Shown here piece after piece: positions 17,103 through 57,822 of a stretch of DNA of 64,000 nt. The DNA comes from Escherichia phage UGKSEcP2. Positions within the stretch are counted from its first letter, which is position 1. Each line of letters begins with the position of its first letter. Made by a program: the position numbers and the translations under genes. The stretch lies in the sequence record OV876900. The stretch is one strand, 5' to 3'. The notes beneath the pieces were generated by a model, which was not told where the DNA came from, made no database searches, and saw only the letters and a list, made by a program, of their open reading frames with translations.

Positions 17103-18815
17103 TTATGGATAGGTATAGATGATACCAGTTTCTAAAGCAGTTTTATGAATGATGTATCCATTACGTGATTCTTGAACATCAACTTCTGGATAGTCTTTCA
17201 TCATCTTCTGAAGAGTGTAACGATGCAGGTAGTATTTACTGTCTGGATCTTCAGTTTTCCAATCTTTACCTTCTTCGGTCATTTTTTGGATTTCATCCAT
17301 AACCCACCAACCGCACCAGATATAAGCTGAAGTACGATGTGGAAGAGGATGAACATAAGGCAATTCACCTTCTGGTTCCGGAGCAACTTTATCAGTTACC
17401 TGAACTTGGCCTGTTGCTTTAACTGTTTTACTATCATAGTCGGTTGCTGTAACGACAGCAGTAACTTCAATAGTTTGACTTCCAATAGATGAGGTGTCAA
17501 CGGTGTATACGTTAGTTGACCCTTCTACAGGAGAAGAATCTTTCTTCCATGAATAAGTAATTTGTGCTGCTTCAGGTGCTCCAGTAACATTAGCCGTAAA
17601 TGTAGCCGAAGCATCTTGCTGAACGTTAATAGAAGGAGGAGTCAATGTAACCTGTGGATTCATTGTCTTCTTATTAACTGTCAATGATACTTCATTAGAA
17701 GTAACTTCCTTTTCATTGTAATTTTCAGCCGTTACTTGGGCTACACACTTAACTGTTTTAGCTCCAACTGTGGTAGGAGTATAGTTAAATGTAGTAGTAG
17801 TTTCTCCATCGACCAGAGAACCGTCAACATACCACTGATACGTAGCAGACGCTCCTGGTGGCTGTGAAGCCAAGGCAGCAGTAAATTGAACTGGGGTTCC
17901 AATTACCCCGGCAGCAGGATTAGCAGGAGTTACGGCTAACGTAGTTGTCTGTGTTTTCTTATTAACTGTTAATGATACTTCATTAGAAGTAACTGTTTTT
18001 GCGTCATAATCTGTTGCTGTTACTTGCGCTACGCATTTAATTCTTTTTACTCCACTTGCAGTTGGAGTATAGCTAAATGTAGCAGAAGTCGCTTCACCAA
18101 TTTGAGAATCATCTACATACCACTGATACGTAGCAGATGCCCCATCAGGTTGAGAAGCTAAGGCAGCAGTAAATTCAACGGCTGTTCCAATCACTCCAGC
18201 TGGAGGACTATCAGGAGTTACTGCCAAGGTAGTCGTCTGCGTCTTTTTATTAACAGTCAATGATACTTCATTAGAAGTAACGCTTAGTGCATCATAATCT
18301 GCCGCAGTTACTTGAGCTACACACTTGATTTTTTTAACTCCGCTTGTGTCAGGAGTGTAATTGAATGTAGCGTCAGTTGCTTCGTCTACAGGAGAACCGT
18401 CAACGTGCCATTGATACGTAGCGTTTGCACCTGATGGCTGTGAAGCTAAGGCAGCGGTAAATTCAATTGGAGTTCCAATCACGCCAGCATCAGGGCTACC
18501 AGGAGTTACAGCTAAAGTAGTTGTTTGTGTCTTATTTTGAACTGTGATAGTTGTCGTAGTTTCTGCTGTTTCAGGTTCAGCTTCAGATTCTGGAACTGTA
18601 TTTGTTGCAACTACTTTAATAGTCTTTTGACCTGCAGGTCCTTTTAGTACATAGCTAAAAGTTGCTTCAGCTCCATCCTGTGGAACATTATCTACACTCC
18701 AAGCATAGGTAATAGTTCCACCTTCAGTTTGACCACTGGGTGTAGCAGTAAACTGCTTGGTTTCATCAATAACTCCTGTTGGGGTTTTAGGAGTTATATC
18801 AACTGTAAAAGTCAT
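17103..18815 (-). CDS. hoc: Hoc outer capsid decoration protein, extended form with three tandem Ig-like repeats
   Basis: 570 aa; N-terminus MTFTVDITPKTPTGVIDETKQF and C-terminal capsid-binding region match recalled T4 Hoc; three tandem 96-aa units between. Confidence 0.9.
   Translation of the reverse strand: MTFTVDITPKTPTGVIDETKQFTATPSGQTEGGTITYAWSVDNVPQDGAEATFSYVLKGPAGQKTIKVVATNTVPESEAEPETAETTTTITVQNKTQTTTLAVTPGSPDAGVIGTPIEFTAALASQPSGANATYQWHVDGSPVDEATDATFNYTPDTSGVKKIKCVAQVTAADYDALSVTSNEVSLTVNKKTQTTTLAVTPDSPPAGVIGTAVEFTAALASQPDGASATYQWYVDDSQIGEATSATFSYTPTASGVKRIKCVAQVTATDYDAKTVTSNEVSLTVNKKTQTTTLAVTPANPAAGVIGTPVQFTAALASQPPGASATYQWYVDGSLVDGETTTTFNYTPTTVGAKTVKCVAQVTAENYNEKEVTSNEVSLTVNKKTMNPQVTLTPPSINVQQDASATFTANVTGAPEAAQITYSWKKDSSPVEGSTNVYTVDTSSIGSQTIEVTAVVTATDYDSKTVKATGQVQVTDKVAPEPEGELPYVHPLPHRTSAYIWCGWWVMDEIQKMTEEGKDWKTEDPDSKYYLHRYTLQKMMKDYPEVDVQESRNGYIIHKTALETGIIYTYP
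17667..18530 (-). repeat. three tandem 288-bp direct repeats inside hoc, each encoding one 96-aa Ig-like unit
   Basis: Protein units TQTTTLAVTP...NEVSLTVNKK repeated three times; DNA unit boundaries at 18242/18243 and 17954/17955. Confidence 0.85.
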
Positions 18816-29912: not shown

Positions 29913-29920
29913 TTTGTGTT

Positions 29921-29973
29921 CCTCATGTTATGTCAGTAAGATTATTATAACACAGCACGAGGGACTTGTAAAC
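29921..29973 (-). repeat. 53-bp early promoter/leader cassette, copy 1 (copy 2 at 45437..45489, 52 of 53 identical)
   Basis: cctcatgttatgtcagtaagattattataacacagcacgagggacttgtaaac compared with the copy upstream of alc, one mismatch. Confidence 0.8.
29944..29973 (-). promoter_or_regulatory. T4-type early promoter (GTTTAC-N18-TATAAT with TG extension)
   Basis: Minus-strand GTTTACAagtccctcgtgctgtgtTATAAT upstream of 96-aa ORF. Confidence 0.6.
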
Positions 29974-32030
29974 TACATCTTGAACTTTTTAGACATTCCG
30001 TTGATGTTAACCAAAGAAGCCAAGATTTGAGAAACTTCGTTTTCCTCTTCTTTTGATTCTTCTACAAGGAATTGATTAAACCCAGCCATTGGACGAACTT
30101 CACCAGTTTCCATTAGATGATCGCCATCATATACCGATTCTTCTAATTGTTCAGAAGGAGGAACGATTGTGCCTTCGATTAGATACTTGTTATAAGCAGT
30201 TTCTTTCATCATGTACGTGCTTACTTTATTAATCTTCAGCAAAATTCCACGCGGTAGAATAACTTCAGCTTCTGATGGAAATCCTGATAAATGACCTGGA
30301 ACGATAACTTTGATTCGCTCAGCCCCTTTAATTACCATACCTACGCTAGTTTCAGCATCTTCATTCGCATAAGCAGAATGACTGCCCATATGCATTAAAT
30401 CTTCAGCATCAACAGAACCTTCTCCTTCACCAGAAAATACTGCGCCGGAATCATCTAGAGCCATATAGTTTTTACCATGCTCACCGAAGATATTTGGTTT
30501 AAGCGATGTTGATACGAAGTTCTTGAAATAGAACATTTTATTTTCAATATTATGGCGTAAAGTTTTAAAAGTAACTTCTTGACCACGATAAAGCGTAGTT
30601 CCCGGAGGAAGAACTGATCCTTTGGCGAATGCAGAATCCATTGTCTCGATGTGTTTAATAGCTCGTTCCATGTATTCTTCACGGGTAGAATCCGGTTTAC
30701 CTAAAAGGAACGAGTTCATTTCAACATATGAATCTGCACAATAATCTTCAATTACATCAGACTCAGCCTGAGTTAATCCTTTTGGAGTTACTTCGGTGCT
30801 TGCGTATTCATATGCCTGAGCAGCAGATTCATTAATCAATTTATAAATGCTATTCATGACAAATTGAATAATAGCTACTTTTTCGTCTGGCGTGGCTTTA
30901 GAACCTTTAACTAAATCATTGATAATTTTCTTAATAACATCAAAGCTATTAGAAATATTAATGTCAGCGAGATCGCTCAAAATTTTATCGGTTTTATAAT
31001 CAAAGAATTCTTTATTCTTTAAATATTCTTGAGAACCTTGATATGTTATATCGCTCTGCAGTCTGATAGACGGATCACGTAAACGTGCATGGGCCAATGC
31101 AATATGATTTCGGAAGCTTTCTAGTTCATAATCGTTAGATTTAAAACGAGAAGCACTTCTCATACCACCGATAGCTCCTTTGCTGAAGTTTGAACCAATC
31201 TGAATAACGCCAGAGTTCATTGGTCCTTCTGCTTTATATACTGGAACTTTAGATTCAAACTCTTGATATTTCTTAGCAGCGAAGCTATCGCCCTGGAGTG
31301 AAGCATCGACAGTAGAATATTGAGCTTGTGCTGCTAATCGACGACTAATTTTAGTTTTCTGAATAACAGCTTGATCCGTGCGCTTATCATTTTCTAAAGC
31401 AATAGAAGCAGCAACAGCAACAGCTTTAGGAACAGCATTACCTGTTTTAACATCTACATAAACATCACCAACCTTTGATTCAACTTTTGTGAATAACTCA
31501 GTTGAAATAGGAGGTACACCTGGAATGTCTTCTAAATTGGCATTTTTACGGTAAACCATAATATATGCATACTTTTTATCATAATCCCAGATTTCCTTTA
31601 AAAGAACATATCGACCTGCTCCTTTAGTACGTACTAAACGGTCAGCAATAACTTGCATCTGACGAGCAGCGCCATTTGTTTTACTTTTTAGTACGCGGAA
31701 TAGGCATGCGTCAATTTTATACTGTTTCATTGTTTGAAGAGCAGTATCAAAAACCGCATTAATGACACCAATTGGATTTCCACCCAAGTTTTTAAGTTTA
31801 ACTAATGATAGTTTCTCATTAACACCTATCATTACGATATGCATCATTTTATCGCCTGGCTTAACGTTTTTATTTGTATCACCGCCAGAGGTGTATGTAC
31901 AAAATCTAAATCCAGGAAGCACGCTTTCTTCACCGGCTTGAATAGCAAAAATTTGAGGTATTTTATGCTTAGGATTTAAGTTAACAACCGGCGCCGAAGC
32001 GCCGTCAAATAATTCTGTAATAAGTTCCAT
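29973..32030 (-). CDS. alt: Alt-family ADP-ribosyltransferase, paralog A (685 aa)
   Basis: N-terminus MELITELFD; C-terminal R-S-EXE motifs (YRGQ, FVSTSL, EAEVILPRG); T4 Alt is about 682 aa. Confidence 0.85.
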   Translation of the reverse strand: MELITELFDGASAPVVNLNPKHKIPQIFAIQAGEESVLPGFRFCTYTSGGDTNKNVKPGDKMMHIVMIGVNEKLSLVKLKNLGGNPIGVINAVFDTALQTMKQYKIDACLFRVLKSKTNGAARQMQVIADRLVRTKGAGRYVLLKEIWDYDKKYAYIMVYRKNANLEDIPGVPPISTELFTKVESKVGDVYVDVKTGNAVPKAVAVAASIALENDKRTDQAVIQKTKISRRLAAQAQYSTVDASLQGDSFAAKKYQEFESKVPVYKAEGPMNSGVIQIGSNFSKGAIGGMRSASRFKSNDYELESFRNHIALAHARLRDPSIRLQSDITYQGSQEYLKNKEFFDYKTDKILSDLADINISNSFDVIKKIINDLVKGSKATPDEKVAIIQFVMNSIYKLINESAAQAYEYASTEVTPKGLTQAESDVIEDYCADSYVEMNSFLLGKPDSTREEYMERAIKHIETMDSAFAKGSVLPPGTTLYRGQEVTFKTLRHNIENKMFYFKNFVSTSLKPNIFGEHGKNYMALDDSGAVFSGEGEGSVDAEDLMHMGSHSAYANEDAETSVGMVIKGAERIKVIVPGHLSGFPSEAEVILPRGILLKINKVSTYMMKETAYNKYLIEGTIVPPSEQLEESVYDGDHLMETGEVRPMAGFNQFLVEESKEEENEVSQILASLVNINGMSKKFKM

Positions 32031-32033
32031 GAT

Positions 32034-34130
32034 TTATCCTTGAACGAACTTGTAAGGCATGTTTGCAATATCTATGCAAGATGCAATAATTCCAAGAGAT
32101 GATTCTACTTTTTGTTTAACATTTGATGAAACAAATGATGCAAAGTCAACTCTGTCTTCTATTTCAATATCATCTGTCATTGCAACTACTTCACCAGTTT
32201 CCATTAGACGGTCACCGTCATAAATTACCGATTCGGTGAGTTCTTCCGTAGTCATAACTTCAGCTTGAATGAGTTTTGTATTATTAGATGTTGTTCCGTC
32301 ATTATTAGAAGCATCAGTTATTTTATTAACTTTGACCATCAATCCGCGTGGTAGAATAACTTCAGCTTCTGTTGCTATTCCGAGACTTCCTGGATATACA
32401 ACATTAACTTTATGAGCTCCATCAATTGCCCATCCTATTTGAACTTTAACGTATTCAGGATTTTCTTTATACGCTCTTATTTCATTTGGATTAATAGTTA
32501 TTCCTTCTTCATTTTTATCAACTGTTAATTCATTACGAGCTTCTGGTTCTAAAAGACCAATACCAGCATGCGTAATTCCAAAACGTCCAAAAATGATAGG
32601 AGTTAAAGAAGTAGATACAAAATTTCTGAAATAGAACACTTTATTTTTAACTAGTGCTTCGTATATAGGAGCAGTCATGCTTTGAGCACGATAAACTGTA
32701 ATGCCTTCTGGTATACGGTCACCATTTTCAAAGGCTGAATCTAAATTATTTATCGCAGATTCAATTTCTTTTTCACTCATTACCTCATATCGTTCTGGAT
32801 TGTAGCGACCTAAAAGAAGATTATTGATGTCAGTATATCCTGAACCACAATACTCTCTAATGCCGCGCTTTTGTGATGGAGTATATTTAGAACCATCACG
32901 AGCAATAGTAATATCAATCATTGGACCTGCACCAATTCCAGAAAAACTATAAATCATTCTTTTGAGGAATTTAGTTTTTGCTGCATTCCAGGAATTTTTA
33001 GTTATTTCTTCCCAGACTTCATCTGTCTGTCCTTTACGAGTTTTATTATGTTTATCAAGCCAGTTATCTTTATATTCTTCAAATAATTGATTAACAACTG
33101 TTGCGTATTTCTCTAAACATTTTATTGAAGTAGTTGGTTCATTTTTAATCGCATTAAGAATTACATCTTTAATTTTTTCAGAAACTTCATTAACCTCACT
33201 TTTTGAAAAGAATTTATAGTCATAATGAAGTTCATCTGCAGTTCCTTCAGCAATAATTTTTGCTGCCTTAGTTTTAGAAGCTAATGAATTAATTCCAAGC
33301 TTCATTTCTTCTGCTTCGGGAATTAAAGGAGCTGTAGCAGGTTTATTGAAATTAGCTGCGGTAGATTCATACTTCTGGAATAATTCACTTTCAAATCTAG
33401 AAGATTCCAATGATTGACTTTGTGCAATTGCTCTACGGGAAATTTTAACTTTAACGATTACAGCTTGGTCAGAACGTTTATCATTTTCTTGTGCAATAGA
33501 TGCTGCAATTGCCTCATTTTTAGTTACTTGAGCTCCAGTATCTTTATTGATATAAACATCACCGACTTTCGATTCAACTTTAGTAAAGAGCTCGGTACTA
33601 ATTTCTGGAACTCCTGGAATGTCTTCTAATGATACATTTTTGCGATGTATAAGAATATATGCGTACTTTTTATCGTAATCCCAGAGTTCCTTAAGAAGGA
33701 CGTATCTGCCACCTGAACGACTGCGGATAAGTCTATCAGCAATAAGTTGAATTTGTCGAGCTTGACCAGCAGTTTTAGACTTAAGAATACGGAGCATACA
33801 GGCATCAATTTTATACTGACGCATCGTTTGCATTGCAACTGTAAAAACTGAATTGATATAATTAATTGGGCTTGGACCGAGACCTTTTAATTTAGCAATT
33901 GAACCTTTAGCAGTTAATGTAAAAGGAACAATATGCATCATTTTATCGCCCATCTTTAAATCGCGATTAGTATCACCTCCAGATGTATAGGTACATAAAC
34001 GAAAGCCTGGTTGTTCAATTGCGTCATCAACATGAACTGAAAAAATTTGCGGTATTTTCTTCTTTGGATTTAAGTTTGTAATCGGAAGAGTAGTATCTTC
34101 GTCAAATAATTCTGTAATGAGTTCCATCAT
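32034..34130 (-). CDS. Alt-family ADP-ribosyltransferase, paralog B (698 aa)
   Basis: N-terminal 230 aa about 70 percent identical to paralog A; C-terminal YRAQ, FVSTSL, EAEVILPRG motifs; own TATAAATA late promoter. Confidence 0.85.
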   Translation of the reverse strand: MMELITELFDEDTTLPITNLNPKKKIPQIFSVHVDDAIEQPGFRLCTYTSGGDTNRDLKMGDKMMHIVPFTLTAKGSIAKLKGLGPSPINYINSVFTVAMQTMRQYKIDACMLRILKSKTAGQARQIQLIADRLIRSRSGGRYVLLKELWDYDKKYAYILIHRKNVSLEDIPGVPEISTELFTKVESKVGDVYINKDTGAQVTKNEAIAASIAQENDKRSDQAVIVKVKISRRAIAQSQSLESSRFESELFQKYESTAANFNKPATAPLIPEAEEMKLGINSLASKTKAAKIIAEGTADELHYDYKFFSKSEVNEVSEKIKDVILNAIKNEPTTSIKCLEKYATVVNQLFEEYKDNWLDKHNKTRKGQTDEVWEEITKNSWNAAKTKFLKRMIYSFSGIGAGPMIDITIARDGSKYTPSQKRGIREYCGSGYTDINNLLLGRYNPERYEVMSEKEIESAINNLDSAFENGDRIPEGITVYRAQSMTAPIYEALVKNKVFYFRNFVSTSLTPIIFGRFGITHAGIGLLEPEARNELTVDKNEEGITINPNEIRAYKENPEYVKVQIGWAIDGAHKVNVVYPGSLGIATEAEVILPRGLMVKVNKITDASNNDGTTSNNTKLIQAEVMTTEELTESVIYDGDRLMETGEVVAMTDDIEIEDRVDFASFVSSNVKQKVESSLGIIASCIDIANMPYKFVQG

Positions 34131-37385: not shown

Positions 37386-37593
37386 TTTCAATACTTATAA
37401 TTTCAACATCAGCCCAATGACCGTAACTTGGTAAACGGTCTTCAATAGATAATCCGCCATCATATTTAAGCATTTTAATTGTCATAATATATGGCTCTAA
37501 ATGGTCTTCAGTGAGCGGAGAGACATCAGTCACACGATAAGTAACTTCGACCATTTCCGTGCCCAGTAATTTCTTGATTAATTTCTTAAACAT
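37378..37593 (-). CDS. hypothetical protein, 71 aa
   Basis: ATG ORF overlapping stop of upstream gene. Confidence 0.5.
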   Translation of the reverse strand: MFKKLIKKLLGTEMVEVTYRVTDVSPLTEDHLEPYIMTIKMLKYDGGLSIEDRLPSYGHWADVEIISIENV

Positions 37594-37885: not shown

Positions 37886-37926
37886 AGTATTTTCCTCAGT
37901 AAGGGGCCGAAGCCCCTCATTTTATT

Positions 37927-38292
37927 TTAAATATCAAATTCGTTAAGAACTACATCAAAGATTGCTTCAAGATGCTCAGGTTTAGCTCTGTTACTCAGAA
38001 TATGACGAATCCAAGTTTTAACCAGAAGCTTGCGATTAACGCCATTCCAGCAAGGATGAGTCCCTAAATCGCGTTGACGAAAATCATCATCCAAAGCGAT
38101 TTTGAAGTTGGAACCTTCCATTGTGATTGAAACCGTGATGCCATTTTCAAATCGCATATAAACGTAGTTAGGAGTCATATACTGTTCAATTTCGCATACT
38201 GATCCATTTTGATGTTTCCAAAGGCAAATAGTATCAATAGAACCTGCAATACCGTTAGAAACATATTTACGTTCAAAGTTGATGTAGTTCAT
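37927..38292 (-). CDS. hypothetical protein, 121 aa
   Basis: ATG ORF downstream of an early promoter with stem-loop. Confidence 0.55.
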   Translation of the reverse strand: MNYINFERKYVSNGIAGSIDTICLWKHQNGSVCEIEQYMTPNYVYMRFENGITVSITMEGSNFKIALDDDFRQRDLGTHPCWNGVNRKLLVKTWIRHILSNRAKPEHLEAIFDVVLNEFDI

Positions 38293-38318
38293 TTTTATTC
38301 TCCGAGATGTTTAATTGC

Positions 38319-38358
38319 GGTACAGGTATATAATATCATATCCTGTACCAAAGTAAAC
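38319..38358 (-). promoter_or_regulatory. early promoter with -10 inside a stem-loop (PeSL-like)
   Basis: GTTTAC-N17-TATTAT; inverted repeat ggtacagg / cctgtacc flanks the -10. Confidence 0.5.
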
Positions 38359-38360
38359 AA

Positions 38361-38693
38361 TTATTTTACTACTTTCCAGTGCTGCATGTCAAGTTTACCA
38401 ACTTTTTTCATCTTCTCAATTAAGCGTTCGGCGCGTTGGCGAGCTGTAACATAATACCATTCACCCAATTCATTTTGTTCAATTTTTCCAACGATTACTG
38501 TATTCAATTCATAAATCCAACCAGTAAAGAAATTATGAACTTGAATTGTAAAGGTGAAATCTGTTCCCATACCTTCTGTTGTTTCTACTTCAATAATATC
38601 ACCTTCAACTGCCATTAAGAACCACATAGTTTCATCATATTTACCGTTGAAGCATTTAGTTTTAACTGCAGCGTTCAGATTAATTGTTTTCAT
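38361..38693 (-). CDS. hypothetical protein, 110 aa
   Basis: ATG ORF with GGAG upstream, downstream of early promoter. Confidence 0.55.
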   Translation of the reverse strand: MKTINLNAAVKTKCFNGKYDETMWFLMAVEGDIIEVETTEGMGTDFTFTIQVHNFFTGWIYELNTVIVGKIEQNELGEWYYVTARQRAERLIEKMKKVGKLDMQHWKVVK

Positions 38694-38701
38694 TTTATTC
38701 T

Positions 38702-38750
38702 CCTTTGTTTGTGTAAGATAATACTATCACAAAGGAACTATACTGTAAAC
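38702..38750 (-). promoter_or_regulatory. early promoter with stem-loop (PeSL-like)
   Basis: GTTTAC-N18-TAGTAT; inverted repeat cctttgt / acaaagg flanks the -10. Confidence 0.5.
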
Positions 38751-41350: not shown

Positions 41351-41583
41351 AGTACGCCATACACCCTTTGTGCTTCAACTAATCCATCAAAATCCAATTT
41401 GAGATGTGTTATTTGGTCACCATCACCTGGATTCACAATTACTAATACTGAACGAGGAGTTTCGGTAATAACGCGAACCGATGTTTCTGGAAATCGTTCA
41501 GAAACCTTATTTACCAATTCCTGAGCAAATAGTTTAACTTTTTCTTGGAATTCTTTAACAGTAATTGGTTTTTCACTTAGCAT
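41347..41583 (-). CDS. hypothetical protein, 78 aa
   Basis: ATG ORF, coupled. Confidence 0.55.
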   Translation of the reverse strand: MLSEKPITVKEFQEKVKLFAQELVNKVSERFPETSVRVITETPRSVLVIVNPGDGDQITHLKLDFDGLVEAQRVYGVL

Positions 41584-42107
41584 GTTGATCCCAGCTCCTT
41601 ACTTTCAACGTTTTTAACTAATTTAACAGAAACTAATTCAGCATCTTGTGTAATCATTACCGGGCCTTCTTCATACTCTTCAAGATATTCTAGAGCTTTC
41701 TTTTTAGCTTCTTCCTTCGTATCAGTTTGAGCATAGATATAAAACATGCAACCACCAGTAATACCTACTACTTTCCACTTAATTTCTTTATCAGTTTTAA
41801 TTTCAAATTTACTGACAGAATCATCTTTTTGAACTTCTTCGAAAAAAGAATATTCTAACATATAAGCAATTGAAAATAACGGGCTAACTTTATAAGATTC
41901 GCCCATTACATCAACAGCTTTATACCAGCGGTCATCAATTTCGCGTTTAATGCTAATAACATTTTTCGCAGGATCTATTTTTACTTTAAATGAATTTTCC
42001 CCAATAAACTGGGCAATTCGTTTATTAGCACCACAGGTTTCATTAAAAATATCTTTATATCCAGCTTTAAAGCGATAAACCTTATCTTCTTCAAACCATT
42101 CGCTCAT
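41577..42107 (-). CDS. hypothetical protein, 176 aa
   Basis: ATG ORF downstream of early promoter with stem-loop. Confidence 0.55.
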   Translation of the reverse strand: MSEWFEEDKVYRFKAGYKDIFNETCGANKRIAQFIGENSFKVKIDPAKNVISIKREIDDRWYKAVDVMGESYKVSPLFSIAYMLEYSFFEEVQKDDSVSKFEIKTDKEIKWKVVGITGGCMFYIYAQTDTKEEAKKKALEYLEEYEEGPVMITQDAELVSVKLVKNVESKELGSTC

Positions 42108-42127: not shown

Positions 42128-42166
42128 TGGTAGAGCTATAATATCACAACTCTACCGTAAAGTAAA
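42128..42166 (-). promoter_or_regulatory. early promoter with stem-loop (PeSL-like)
   Basis: GTTTAC-N18-TATTAT; inverted repeat ggtagag / ctctacc flanks the -10. Confidence 0.5.
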
Positions 42167-42169
42167 CTA

Positions 42170-42835: not shown

Positions 42836-44060
<1,225 letters not shown>

Positions 44061-45428: not shown

Positions 45429-45436
45429 TATAAAGT

Positions 45437-45489
45437 CCTCATGTTATGTCAGTAAGATTACTATAACACAGCACGAGGGACTTGTAAAC
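45437..45489 (-). repeat. 53-bp early promoter/leader cassette, copy 2
   Basis: Near-identical to 29921..29973; lies between rnlA stop and alc start. Confidence 0.8.
45460..45489 (-). promoter_or_regulatory. T4-type early promoter upstream of alc
   Basis: Minus-strand GTTTAC-N18-TATAGT. Confidence 0.55.
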
Positions 45490-53749: not shown

Positions 53750-53785
53750 AGGGTAATAGTATCACACTACTACCCTTCTGTAAAC
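53750..53785 (-). promoter_or_regulatory. early promoter (GTTTAC-N18-TACTAT)
   Basis: Motif match; short inverted repeat agggta / taccct around the -10. Confidence 0.45.
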
Positions 53786-57760: not shown

Positions 57761-57822
57761 ATGAACCTCGTTCAATTAGTGAGATTTCTATTATATACTA
57801 TCTAAATCTTAAAGTAAACAAG

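Follow-up and report, generated by a model that had tools for sequence, protein, structure and literature searches.

Inverted repeats in early promoters of a T4-like phage: promoter cassettes of the PeSL kind with a hairpin predicted in read-through RNA

For phage gene regulation, T4 serves as the reference system; its ~40 early promoters form long same-direction arrays in which one promoter fires into another, and reviews describe the extra conservation of these promoters and the control of early expression as incompletely understood (PMC2988021, PMC3014915). Promoter-early stem-loop (PeSL) cassettes were published in 2010 (Arbiol et al., PMC2839356) and 2014 (Comeau et al., PMC4122927). According to PMC2839356, their stem-loops fall into five positional subclasses, overlap with -10 among them, and in the commonest subclasses the stem-loop lies between -35 and -10 or overlaps -10; a terminating function was proposed and tested for the phi1 stem-loops. 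The same paper describes, for the internal-protein (IP) loci only, the elements of the T-even IP locus (Repoila et al. 1994). A further family comprises the T4 hairpins that sequester a ribosome-binding site and contain an internal promoter, known for genes e, soc, 49 and I-TevI: long transcripts fold and hide the Shine-Dalgarno sequence (SD) and AUG, whereas transcripts from the internal promoter, which lack the 5' strand, are translated (PMC3014915).

The window, i.e., the whole 64,000-nt stretch of Escherichia phage UGKSEcP2 (OV876900) analyzed here, represents a T4-like (Tequatrovirus) genome. The first-pass annotation had proposed inverted repeats around the -10 hexamer of at least three minus-strand early promoters, and all three repeats that it listed were found at the coordinates it gave; the P2 repeat, reported as 7 bp, is one pair longer. 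These sites are the early promoters 5' of gene 30.7 (P1), of gene 30.8 (P2) and at Pe133295 (cd.3/cd.2; P3). Sequence comparison showed that T4 shares the promoter and repeat sequences at P1, P2 and P3. Their assignment as T4-type early promoters agrees with these identical T4 sequences, with the naming of Pe133295 in the T4 record, and with the fPS-90 record, in which the P1 and P2 sites are both annotated as predicted early promoters. The promoter layouts, TTTACT-16-TATTAT (P1), TTTACA-17-TAGTAT (P2) and TTTACT-17-TATTAT (P3), follow the T4/PST pattern TTTACW-N17-TAYWAT. As had been proposed, a small ORF follows each site, with the SD and ATG of gp30.7, gp30.8 and the 176-aa ORF, respectively. 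An Rfam scan of the whole window matched no family. The coordinates are collected in Table 1.

Table 1. Early promoters, repeat arms and neighboring features in the window
Feature	Position	Strand	Details
P1 early promoter of gene 30.7	38330..38358	-	-35 GTTTAC-T 38358-38352; -10 TATTAT 38335-38330
P1 5' arm GGTACAGG	38342..38349	-	untranscribed -35/-10 spacer, -26..-19
P1 3' arm CCTGTACC	38319..38326	-	across predicted start site, -3..+5
P1 extended hairpin, predicted in read-through RNA	38308..38359	-	22 pairs, 4-nt apical loop
Gene 30.7 (121 aa), downstream of P1	37927..38292	-	Pfam PF06919, E 1.8e-52; T4 annotation
P2 early promoter of gene 30.8	38721..38750	-	-35 GTTTACA from 38750; -10 TAGTAT 38726-38721
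P2 5' arm TCCTTTGT, anti-Shine-Dalgarno	38729..38736	-	in promoter spacer, -22..-15
P2 3' arm ACAAAGGA, SD region of 30.8	38701..38708	-	AAGGAG, also GGAG RegB-type motif
Gene 30.8 (110 aa)	38361..38693	-	Pfam PF06019
Canonical intrinsic terminator just upstream of P2	38779..38800	-	GAGGACTCC-TTCG-GGAGTCCTT and T-run
P3 early promoter, homologue of T4 Pe133295	42138..42167	-	-35 GTTTACT from 42167; -10 TATTAT 42143-42138
P3 5' arm GGTAGAG	42150..42156	-	-25..-19
P3 3' arm CTCTACC	42129..42135	-	-4..+3
176-aa ORF downstream of P3, function unknown	41577..42107	-	PHROG 3710
Early promoter, class A repeat AGATTT/AAATCT (6 bp) around TATAAT	57782..57819	-	
Early promoter, class A repeat AGGGTA/TACCCT (6 bp) around TACTAT	53750..53785	-	
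Early promoter, class B repeat AAGTCC(C)TC/GAGGACTT	45433..45489	-	spacer pairs with SD
Second copy of the 54-nt promoter-to-SD cassette	29920..29973	-	98% identical, 15.5 kb apart (family D5)

The three repeats fall into two classes. The 3' arm in class A (P1 and P3) lies across the predicted start site, at about -6..+5, whereas in class B (P2) the promoter spacer is an anti-Shine-Dalgarno sequence and the 3' arm is the Shine-Dalgarno sequence itself. The first-pass annotation had missed this separate class, as well as the genome-wide occurrence of the feature and its publication as PeSL.

Among the described systems, the sites are built like PeSL cassettes: upstream sequence rich in AT, an early promoter of the sigma-70 type with an associated stem-loop, and the SD and start codon of a small ORF of unknown function. 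Like PeSL, they are concentrated in hyperplastic regions, and in some comparisons they lie near indels and replacements; five indels were counted between the window and T4 over 17 kb. The phi1/RB49 PeSL stems are made of G-runs and C-runs and were shown to terminate, whereas the repeats at P1-P3 are AT-rich and have no U-tracts. For PST/T4 cassettes, the 2014 figure legend (PMC4122927) puts the stem-loop immediately 5' of the promoter, and its counterpart here is the terminator at 38800-38779; judging by that legend, repeats bracketing -10 or joining spacer and SD were apparently not what was scored in T4/PST. The IP elements, as summarized in PMC2839356, resemble the sites in that they are repeats based on T4 early promoters, have weaker, AT-rich stem-loops that vary in size, and flank highly exchangeable small genes.

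P2 and the other class B promoters have exactly the geometry of e, soc, 49 and I-TevI, with the promoter inside the 5' strand region of the hairpin. Those genes use late promoters (TATAAATA), which delay translation until late in infection; here, the internal promoters are of the early sigma-70 type with the anti-SD in the -35/-10 spacer. Moreover, P1 and P3 are not predicted to sequester the SD. The sites would work like this family without being strict members of it. Since the repeats belong to already described PeSL cassettes and likely fold in read-through RNA, they are a refinement of these cassettes and not a new system; the sole new part may be a genome-wide anti-leader/anti-SD logic.

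To quantify complementarity between promoter spacers and leaders, spacers were re-paired with the leaders of other promoters, shuffled and slid, and random genomic windows were sampled. In the window, a repeat of at least 7 bp is present in 3 of 8 strict GTTTAC promoters, compared with ~7% expected per promoter. In Tequatrovirus LF73P3, such repeats occur in 14 of 39 promoters (2.7 expected; maximum 7-8 in 200-300 nulls), and those of at least 8 bp in 9 of 39 (0.6-0.9 expected). Repeats of at least 8 bp were likewise detected in 8 of 41 promoters of the Mosigvirus-like EP02SG (1.3 expected) and in 9 of 37 promoters of SH-1 (0.85 expected). Random windows of the same geometry gave 5.6-7.5% at 7 bp or more and 1.9-2.8% at 8 bp or more; slid controls stayed near this background (2-15% and 0-5%, respectively). 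Among 42 non-redundant IMG/VR promoters, 11 carry at least 7 bp (3.3 expected) and four at least 10 bp (0.18 expected), counts attained in none of 500 nulls. Across the three genomes and the independent IMG/VR sample, a spacer complementary to its own leader is 4-10 times commoner than in controls, with the limit that paralogous promoters within these counts are not fully independent; in the IMG/VR sample, the enrichment persists after near-duplicates are collapsed. In T4-like early promoters, the complementarity is thus conserved and present across the genome, with arm sequences that differ by promoter and by phage. Repeats of 7 bp or more are confined to about one third of early promoters.

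That the repeats arise by chance, or follow from the promoter consensus and from copying between paralogues without any function of their own, is hardly credible, and the controls largely refute it. The TGn/-10 consensus does account for some of the upper stem (UGUG with UAUA), and several promoters are paralogues with a palindromic core, such as TAGGACT-atgt-TATAGT-AGTCCTA, present three times in EP02SG. However, re-pairing that preserves the consensus yields 3-10 times fewer repeats, the enrichment outlasts the collapse of near-duplicates, and the arms are kept where loop and leader diverge.

Folding of the three sites as RNA and as DNA was then predicted. Read-through RNA folds at -20.1 kcal/mol at P1 (z -4.55, 0/200 shuffles), at -16.9 kcal/mol in the P3 region (z -4.0) and at -12.1 kcal/mol at P2 (z -2.0), and the corresponding DNA z-scores are -5.4, -2.7 and -2.8 for P1, P2 and P3, so that a stem-loop of the PeSL kind is predicted at each. 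The transcripts of P1-P3 themselves, with start sites inferred from promoter geometry, are predicted to fold at 0 to -0.8 kcal/mol, that of P2 at 0 kcal/mol. With these inferred starts, the 5' arms, at -30..-15, lie upstream of transcription and each promoter is internal to the folded region. The claim that -10 sits in the loop holds for the perfect repeats, which leave a loop of 14-20 nt; in the folded RNA, and at P1 also in single-stranded DNA, part of the -10/TG region is paired and the apical loop shrinks to 4 nt.

The predicted structures differ between the classes. The extended P1 hairpin also pairs GUUUA of the -35 element with UAAAC and leaves the SD unpaired. In P3 RNA, a 12-bp stem closed by a 4-nt loop extends over 42156-42129, and the SD is paired only by a weak outer helix in the minimum free energy (MFE) structure that is absent from the centroid. 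Of the three sites, only P2 is predicted to sequester the SD, with UUCCUUUGU pairing ACAAAGGAG; its 9-bp helix (38737-38729 / 38708-38700) takes in the whole SD. Genome-wide, the read-through MFE structure pairs the entire SD at 17 of 39 and 16 of 41 promoters, as against 4 and 0 for the promoters' own transcripts.

Conservation of the arms was assessed across genera. The 30.7-30.8 region has matches in more than 700 Tequatrovirus/Mosigvirus genomes. The P1 5' arm does not vary in eight distinct orthologues from three genera, and the sole variants seen in its 3' arm are C->T changes yielding G·U; in the P1 alignment, 87.5% of cells are paired, compared with 34-47% in slid controls, and the covariation score was exceeded by 2 of 500 shuffles. 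At P3, the 5' arm reads GGTGGAG in EP02SG and L020, forming G·U with an unchanged partner. Protein-anchored retrieval from IMG/VR recovered 9 and 6 loci with arms that vary little. The repeats are therefore real, stable on folding and conserved in Tequatro-, Mosig- and Dhakavirus, and the lack of conservation and of stability that the first-pass annotation had named as grounds for rejection was not seen.

Elsewhere, the stems often change as a whole, and several keep their architecture with a new sequence. TGATGAG/CTCATCA of the LF144981 promoter becomes TGATAGGACT/AGTCCTATCA in EP02SG between identical flanks, the LF132375 stem (12 bp, one G·U) is a 14-bp anti-SD stem there, and three phages each place the 5' complement of TACCCTATC at another position in the spacer. 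IMG/VR yielded new and independent arms, 8-11 bp long, and the repeat is lost altogether in some orthologues (LF54122 in EP02SG; LF123471 in SH-1). Clean base-by-base compensation across genera was accordingly rejected, with stems often replaced, register-shifted or switched between classes A and B: a strict, register-mapped position-by-position comparison of LF73P3 with SH-1/EP02SG gave 19 one-sided mismatches, 3 double changes keeping Watson-Crick pairing and a G·U:A·C ratio of 5:4. Because stems are replaced rather than compensated, a G·U bias is claimed for otherwise intact helices only, as modest evidence. There, every single substitution gives G·U, and non-Watson-Crick positions in composite helices comprise six sense G·U, one A·C and one other, against a null of ~0.57:0.56:1.3. 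Sense-strand folds are also stronger in LF73P3 (MFE -13.7 vs. -10.3 kcal/mol antisense), with a small difference in EP02SG (-11.6 vs. -10.7). Together, the G·U substitutions and the stronger sense fold modestly favor a structure in the sense strand. A G·T bias would also fit a hairpin in the non-template DNA strand.

We incline to the view that P1-P3 are T4-type early (sigma-70) promoter/leader cassettes of the PeSL kind with a hairpin in read-through RNA; according to the predicted folds, the repeats most likely form only in RNA reading through from upstream genes. Each promoter would start transcription about 7 nt past -10, and for this reason its own mRNA would lack the 5' arm and be unstructured, whereas read-through RNA from an upstream promoter would hold both arms and form the hairpin. 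Since both arms would occur only in read-through RNA, the repeat could tell it from promoter-proximal RNA. In class B, the hairpin would conceal the SD and the GGAG RegB-type motif, so that translation of gene 30.8 would depend almost entirely on the transcript of its own promoter; T4 genes e, soc, 49 and I-TevI follow the same logic, except that here an early promoter lies inside the hairpin. Little read-through may reach P2, however, because a good terminator already precedes it. In class A, the hairpin would lie ~12 nt past the previous stop codon and leave the next SD free, most likely acting as an intercistronic insulator or as a structure protecting the 3' end of the upstream cistron; of all the steps in this reading, this class A role is the weakest. 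The regulatory role suggested by the first-pass annotation is thus plausible from sequence and predicted folds.

The main alternative is that the repeats are recombination signals at the DNA level, in which a hairpin, a cruciform or a binding protein targets exchange, excision (as mini-circles) or inversion. This is the main reading of the PeSL authors (PMC2839356, PMC4122927) and was also put forward in the first-pass annotation, and it would explain why repeats mark the edges of accessory genes, since DNA hairpins would target exchange there; for the present sites we consider it unlikely. Homology to EP02SG stops exactly at the G of the P1 -35 element and at the ATG after P3, a 176-aa ORF is inserted in the P3 leader relative to T4, the 54-nt promoter cassette exists in two copies, gene 30.8 of Dhakavirus C6 and of the L008 group is flanked by a ~40-nt leader common to P1 and P2, and PeSL mini-circles were demonstrated for phi1/RB49 (PMC2839356). 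The two cassette copies and the leader common to P1 and P2 in C6 are direct repeats that would suit such excision. The breakpoints themselves, however, fall on the borders of cassettes (-35, SD/ATG) and never touch the arms, and three of the five indels between the window and T4 in 17 kb lie away from such promoters. Flanking ORFs do change at the P1 -35 and in the P3 leader; the proposed recombinogenic modules at island boundaries are partly supported, with breakpoints at cassette edges in some comparisons. Ends of high-scoring segment pairs (HSPs) against EP02SG fall inside a promoter cassette in ~3 of 54 cases (raw count). Arm sequences are unlike between promoters, so the arms offer no mutual homology; perfect arms of 7-8 bp set 14-20 nt apart are poor for cruciform extrusion, and the single-stranded DNA hairpins reach just -5 to -8.4 kcal/mol. 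Class B arms aim at the SD, which is sensible in RNA only, the G·U bias lies on the sense strand, and T4 recombines anywhere at microhomologies of 2-10 bp (PMC9391042).

A second alternative, that the stem-loops are terminators or attenuators halting RNA polymerase arriving from upstream and so isolating each promoter, appears still less probable. The P3 and P1 hairpins are stable as RNA (-17 to -20 kcal/mol) and, like intrinsic terminators, the hairpins are intergenic and just past the upstream stop codon; the phi1 PeSL stem-loop cut lacZ expression about as much as rrnB T1 (PMC2839356). Unlike terminators, the repeats have 3' arms that overlap the next gene's start site or SD and are followed by gcaatt, gagaat and aaaaca; with no U-tract after any of them and none flagged by the terminator scan, which does flag the separate canonical terminator at 38800-38779, they were ruled out as intrinsic terminators. 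In addition, the T4-type stems are AT-rich, in contrast to the G/C-run stems of phi1, and class B helices span loops of 20-30 nt and end in the SD. It is more improbable again that a DNA hairpin near -12 aids the promoter itself, e.g., by pre-melting -10 in supercoiled DNA, by analogy with the hairpin early promoters of coliphage N4. The N4 early-promoter hairpins, read by a dedicated virion RNA polymerase, have 5-7 bp stems, 3-nt loops and conserved sequences. The present inverted repeats are similarly centered near -12, with a class A symmetry center at -11.5 to -14.5, but the T4-type sites are canonical sigma-70 promoters whose -35/TGn/-10 elements serve duplex recognition, and arm sequence and position in the spacer vary among promoters, even among orthologues. 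In class B, the partner of the spacer is an SD located 20-30 nt downstream, perfect DNA arms leave a large stretch of 10-16 nt unpaired between them, and a repeat of 7 bp or more is missing from about two thirds of early promoters that are just as good. The exceptional strength of T4 early promoters and their unexplained extra consensus (PMC2988021) would fit such an aid.

Returning to the read-through hairpin, we tentatively extend it to the whole early gene set: at least one third of T4-type early promoters may carry in their spacer a complement of their own leader or SD, and tandem early units would be systematically insulated at the RNA level, with the ribosome-binding site (class B) or the intercistronic junction (class A) behaving differently in read-through and own mRNA. 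If true, this would carry the paradigm of a late promoter in a hairpin (e, soc, 49, I-TevI) over to early genes as a genome-wide rule, explain in part why T4 early promoters have variable spacers and an extra consensus so far unaccounted for, provide a simple, testable rule for early genes translated only from their own promoter, and give a reason why promoter cassettes travel as intact units. For the engineering of therapeutic T4-like phages, an ORF swapped without its cassette would then be translated differently in read-through RNA. If not, the sites are one further illustration of published PeSL elements.

Whole cassettes, from -35 to SD, are repeated and conserved, which suggests that ORF modules are exchanged at the cassette edges; this is partly shown, and the arms themselves would not be the recombination sites. 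The promoter at 45433..45489 is one copy of the duplicated 54-nt cassette, and a T4 homology block ends 19 nt upstream of the other copy. The 53750..53785 promoter has paralogues in LF73P3 at 123471 and 50093. The cassette of terminator, P2 and gene 30.8 is highly divergent between genera, seen as HSP gaps against EP02SG, whereas its flanks are 87-94% identical; the gene 30.8 product has 37-45% amino acid identity in other genera, and a hairpin of different sequence stands in place of the terminator in JS09, C6, Boboto and PWKp18. The 176-aa ORF, without a Pfam match, sits as an insertion between the P3 SD and the cd.2 ATG relative to T4; it is absent from T4, L019, L020 and EP02SG, where cd.2 directly follows P3.

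In the T4 GenBank record, the 14 nt exactly between the P3 arms are noted as earlier reported in inverted complement, an observation that would suit recombination and is as likely a cloning or sequencing artefact. An invertible promoter switch was considered and rejected, the arms being 7-8 bp around 14-20 nt, and we know of no dedicated recombinase for inverting the P1-P3 promoter segments. The stem_loop features in the TuIa record AJ621579, considered as candidates for these repeats, proved instead to be the upstream terminator and, past 30.7, a GC hairpin.

The region containing the three sites shares 95–99.5% identity with hundreds of Tequatrovirus (T4-like) genomes, and comparison with T4 (AF158101) identified its minus-strand ORFs as 30.6–30.9, rIII, 31, cd, cd.1–cd.5 and pseT. 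The first-pass annotation had described inverted repeats bracketing the -10 element of three early promoters, designated here P1 (intergenic, upstream of 30.7), P2 (upstream of 30.8) and P3 (downstream of cd.3). This observation is confirmed: on minus-strand reading, arms and coordinates are as reported, except that the P2 repeat, present at its place, comprises 8 bp rather than 7. The interpretation attached to it is partly supported. The sites are indeed T4-type early promoters, as their promoter and repeat sequences are identical in T4, where P3 is named Pe133295, and P1 and P2 are annotated as predicted early promoters in the phage fPS-90 record. The ORFs following P1 and P2 encode gp30.7 (PF06919) and gp30.8 (PF06019), respectively. 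Homologues of gp30.8 (37–45% amino acid identity) occur far beyond the T-even genera, in Jiaodavirus, Karamvirus and Marfavirus, as well as in phages of 140–160 kb, AV125 and Melville among them; in one record the homologue is annotated as 'Imm63 domain-containing protein'.

Promoters, repeats and other features of the window
Feature	Position	Strand	Description
P1	ATG at 38292	minus	GTTTACT-ttGGTACAGGatatga-TATTAT-ata-CCTGTACC, then GGAG
P2	ATG at 38693	minus	GTTTACA-gtatagtTCCTTTGTga-TAGTAT-tatcttacacaa-ACAAAGGA-gaataaaATG
P3	ATG at 42107	minus	GTTTACT-ttacGGTAGAGttgtga-TATTAT-ag-CTCTACC, then GAGG
P3 loop	42136–42149		14 nt; T4 133300–133313 (13301–13314 in L001, the T4 sequence)
Candidate sigma-70 promoter	38363–38392	minus	near-consensus TTGACA-18 nt-TAAAAT, 11/12 matches; within 30.8 end, ~35 nt upstream of P1
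Canonical terminator	38800–38779		upstream of P2
GC-rich hairpin	37902–37917		AGGGGC-CGAA-GCCCCT, between 30.7 and 30.6
176-aa ORF	41577–42107	minus	between P3 and cd.2; PHROG 3710 (unknown function)
106-aa ORF	43740–44060	minus	directly upstream of pseT
54-nt direct repeat	29920–29973; 45436–45489	same strand	98% identical, 15.5 kb apart
570-aa ORF	17103–18815	minus	PKD/Ig-like domains (Hoc-like)
Repeats in 570-aa ORF	17665–18540		three tandem 288-nt units, 78% identity
Spaced direct repeats	about 30080–34130		several, ~2.09 kb apart, 70–94% identity (families D2–D4, D7, D9)

Early promoters were defined mechanically (GTTTAC, 16–18 nt, TAnnnT agreeing with TATAAT at four or more of the six positions, then SD and ATG). 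Each was scored by the length of the longest uninterrupted stretch of its spacer that is complementary to the first 50 nt following the -10 element. Among the 39 promoters of LF73P3, a complete Tequatrovirus, 14 carried repeats of at least 7 bp (null 2–3, maximum 7–8 in 200–300 shuffles or re-pairings) and 9 of at least 8 bp (null 0.6–0.9). At the latter threshold, 8 of 41 promoters were positive in the Mosigvirus-like EP02SG (null 1.3) and 9 of 37 in a second Tequatrovirus, SH-1 (null 0.85). A scan of IMG/VR for GTTTAC-N13-TGTGATAYTAT yielded 42 non-redundant promoters, 11 with at least 7 bp (null 3.3) and 4 with at least 10 bp (null 0.18), counts reached by 0/500 nulls. Repeats of at least 7 bp were found at 24–36% of promoters versus 5.6–7.5% of genomic windows of matching geometry drawn at random, and those of at least 8 bp at 20–23% versus 1.9–2.8%; when either segment was slid by -30, +40 or +60 nt, the fractions were 2–15% and 0–5%, respectively, near background. 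Given the enrichment over nulls, random windows and slid controls, the repeats are real, and the three sites exemplify a general feature of T4-type early promoters.

Two classes can be distinguished. In class A (P1, P3 and, e.g., the LF73P3 promoters at 144981, 140251, 123471 and 92380), the spacer contributes the 5' arm (about -30..-17), and the 3' arm, directly adjoining the -10 element at -6..+5, spans the predicted start site. In class B (P2 and, e.g., LF73P3 135929 with 10 bp, 122029/70750 with 9 bp, 132375 and 41785), the SD of the downstream gene serves as the 3' arm, and its complement, an anti-Shine-Dalgarno sequence, is located in the spacer. Since the predicted start lies downstream of the 5' arm in both classes, a promoter's own transcript should be unable to form the hairpin. 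With start sites as predicted, the structure would be possible only in RNA coming from upstream.

Such read-through RNA was folded from -38 to the ATG, with 200 shuffles per site. The hairpins of P1 (-20.1 kcal/mol, z -4.55), P3 (-16.9 kcal/mol, z -4.0) and P2 (-12.1 kcal/mol, z -2.0) were predicted to be stable, bearing out the proposed stem-loops at the RNA level; 0/200 shuffles were as good at P1 and P3, and 7/200 at P2. Own transcripts from the predicted +1 gave 0 to -0.8 kcal/mol. The predicted P2 helix, UUCCUUUGU/ACAAAGGAG, covers the entire SD. In the P1 and P3 folds, the TGn/-10 region contributes G·U-rich upper pairs, which draws part of the -10 into the stem and leaves a loop of 4 nt; P1 additionally pairs its -35 (UGUUUA) with the leader UAAACA. 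Genome-wide, 20/39 promoter regions had sense-strand z below -2, and the SD was fully paired in the read-through MFE structure in 17/39 (LF73P3) and 16/41 (EP02SG) cases, compared with 4 and 0 for own transcripts. RNA from the candidate sigma-70 promoter would start about the P1 -35 and include the full P1 hairpin.

Alternatively, the hairpin could form in the non-template DNA strand instead of RNA; single-stranded DNA hairpins are predicted to be weak (-5 to -8.4 kcal/mol). The non-Watson-Crick positions within composite helices comprise 6 sense G·T, 1 A·C and 1 other (null ratio about 0.57:0.56:1.3), and single substitutions found in otherwise intact helices all lead to sense G·U. The sense fold is stronger than the antisense one in LF73P3 (-13.7 vs -10.3 kcal/mol), with a small gap in EP02SG (-11.6 vs -10.7), and the class B target, the SD, is meaningful only in RNA. 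Together, the G·U bias, the stronger sense fold and SD targeting moderately favour a sense-strand RNA structure. The three repeats are not canonical intrinsic terminators: all three 3' arms lack a following U-tract, and a consensus terminator scan flagged none of them and only the canonical terminator upstream of P2. A mechanism acting through read-through RNA, proposed from sequence and predicted folds, is the best-supported reading, and we consider it somewhat probable. The separate GC-rich hairpin corresponds to the stem_loop of TuIa record AJ621579 (521–538), with no T-run after it on the minus (coding) strand.

The repeats are kept in homologous promoters of related phages. The P1 arms are unchanged in eight distinct orthologues (Tequatro-, Mosig- and Dhakavirus), aside from C->T changes giving G·U, while loop, leader and flanking genes vary; in the flanking pairs, U-A alternates with U·G and A-U with U·G, and 87.5% of alignment cells pair versus 34–47% in slid controls. 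At P3, EP02SG and the related genome L020 have the 5' arm GGTGGAG (G·U), and one inner U·G becomes U-A. At other orthologous promoters, sequence comparison indicates that the architecture is kept with changed sequence: with identical flanks, TGATGAG/CTCATCA is exchanged for TGATAGGACT/AGTCCTATCA, a 12-bp anti-SD helix is replaced by a different 14-bp helix, the complement of TACCCTATC occupies three different spacer positions in three phages, and switches between class A and class B occur. Changes are not, as a rule, compensated base by base; register-mapped comparisons show many pairs that are plainly broken, and the repeat has been lost from some orthologues.

Promoter-early stem-loop cassettes (PeSLs) were defined in phi1/RB49 by Arbiol et al. 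2010, with stem-loops most commonly between -35 and -10 or overlapping -10, read as terminators/attenuators and recombination linkers; weaker AT-rich analogues were noted at T-even IP loci (PMC2839356). Comeau et al. 2014 added PST/T4 to the phages with PeSLs, gave TTTACW-N17-TAYWAT as the consensus and located the stem-loop immediately 5' of the promoter (PMC4122927). Our finding matches these elements and is therefore a rediscovery of the PeSL type. In Uzan and Miller 2010, hairpins that sequester the RBS and contain a late promoter are listed for e, soc, 49 and I-TevI only (PMC3014915), and the Hinton review of prereplicative T4 transcription contains neither 'symmetry' nor 'palindrom' and mentions hairpins only with terminators (PMC2988021). 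The genome-wide anti-leader/anti-SD geometry appears to be unstated in the PeSL papers and T4 reviews cited here, as does what it implies, namely a hairpin confined to read-through RNA.

The proposal that these elements are recombinogenic boundary modules is supported for cassette edges at some junctions but not for the arms themselves. Homology with EP02SG ends exactly at the G of the P1 -35 (38358) and at the start codon following P3 (42105), and the terminator, P2 and 30.8 form a divergent cassette between flanks 87–94% identical to that phage. The 176-aa ORF replaces 10 nt between the P3 SD and the cd.2 ATG of T4; it occurs in LF73P3, SH-1 and several contigs from IMG/VR and is absent from T4, EP02SG and two other related genomes (L019, L020), which have the T4 arrangement. 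It has no Pfam match; a weak match to the goF mRNA-metabolism-modulator family was found (phrog_2980, E 3.6e-4). The 54-nt direct repeat is exactly one early promoter cassette, from GTTTAC (-35) to SD, and resembles the portable cassette predicted by the PeSL model; the T4 homology block stops 19 nt upstream of its 29920–29973 copy. No junction falls inside any repeat arm in the EP02SG and T4 comparisons, and three other window-versus-T4 indels, at 37422–37592, 39098 and 43740–44054, have no such promoter. The cassettes thus appear to be module edges in some cases, in line with the PeSL papers' proposal. The 106-aa ORF is an insertion relative to T4 (~313 extra nt in the window), with no Pfam match and no GTTTAC promoter at its junction with pseT.

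The T4 GenBank entry describes 133300–133313, exactly the loop between the P3 arms GGTAGAG/CTCTACC, as 'inverted complement of previously reported sequence; corrects the early promoter Pe133295'. In the older T4 sequence, the loop carrying the -10 thus lay in the opposite orientation between the arms. The P3 repeat has therefore given rise at least once to an inversion or to something resembling one, whether through a cloning or sequencing error or through genuine template switching. In Dhakavirus C6 and a ~170.5-kb IMG/VR group (L008–L012), P1 and P2 have an identical ~40-nt leader, gtaccaaataatacgaaaacaaactggagaataaaatg, forming direct repeats either side of 30.8 that would be ideal substrates for its excision or replacement; in their P2, the -35 variant (T/A)GTACAT pairs with ATGTAC after the -10.

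Elsewhere in the window, LF73P3 has one unit fewer at the same place in the tandem repeats of the 570-aa ORF. The ~2.09-kb-spaced repeats, together with patchy homology to T4 alt, alt.-1 and alt.-2, point to a tandem pair of alt-like genes at the place occupied in T4 by alt and truncated remnants.
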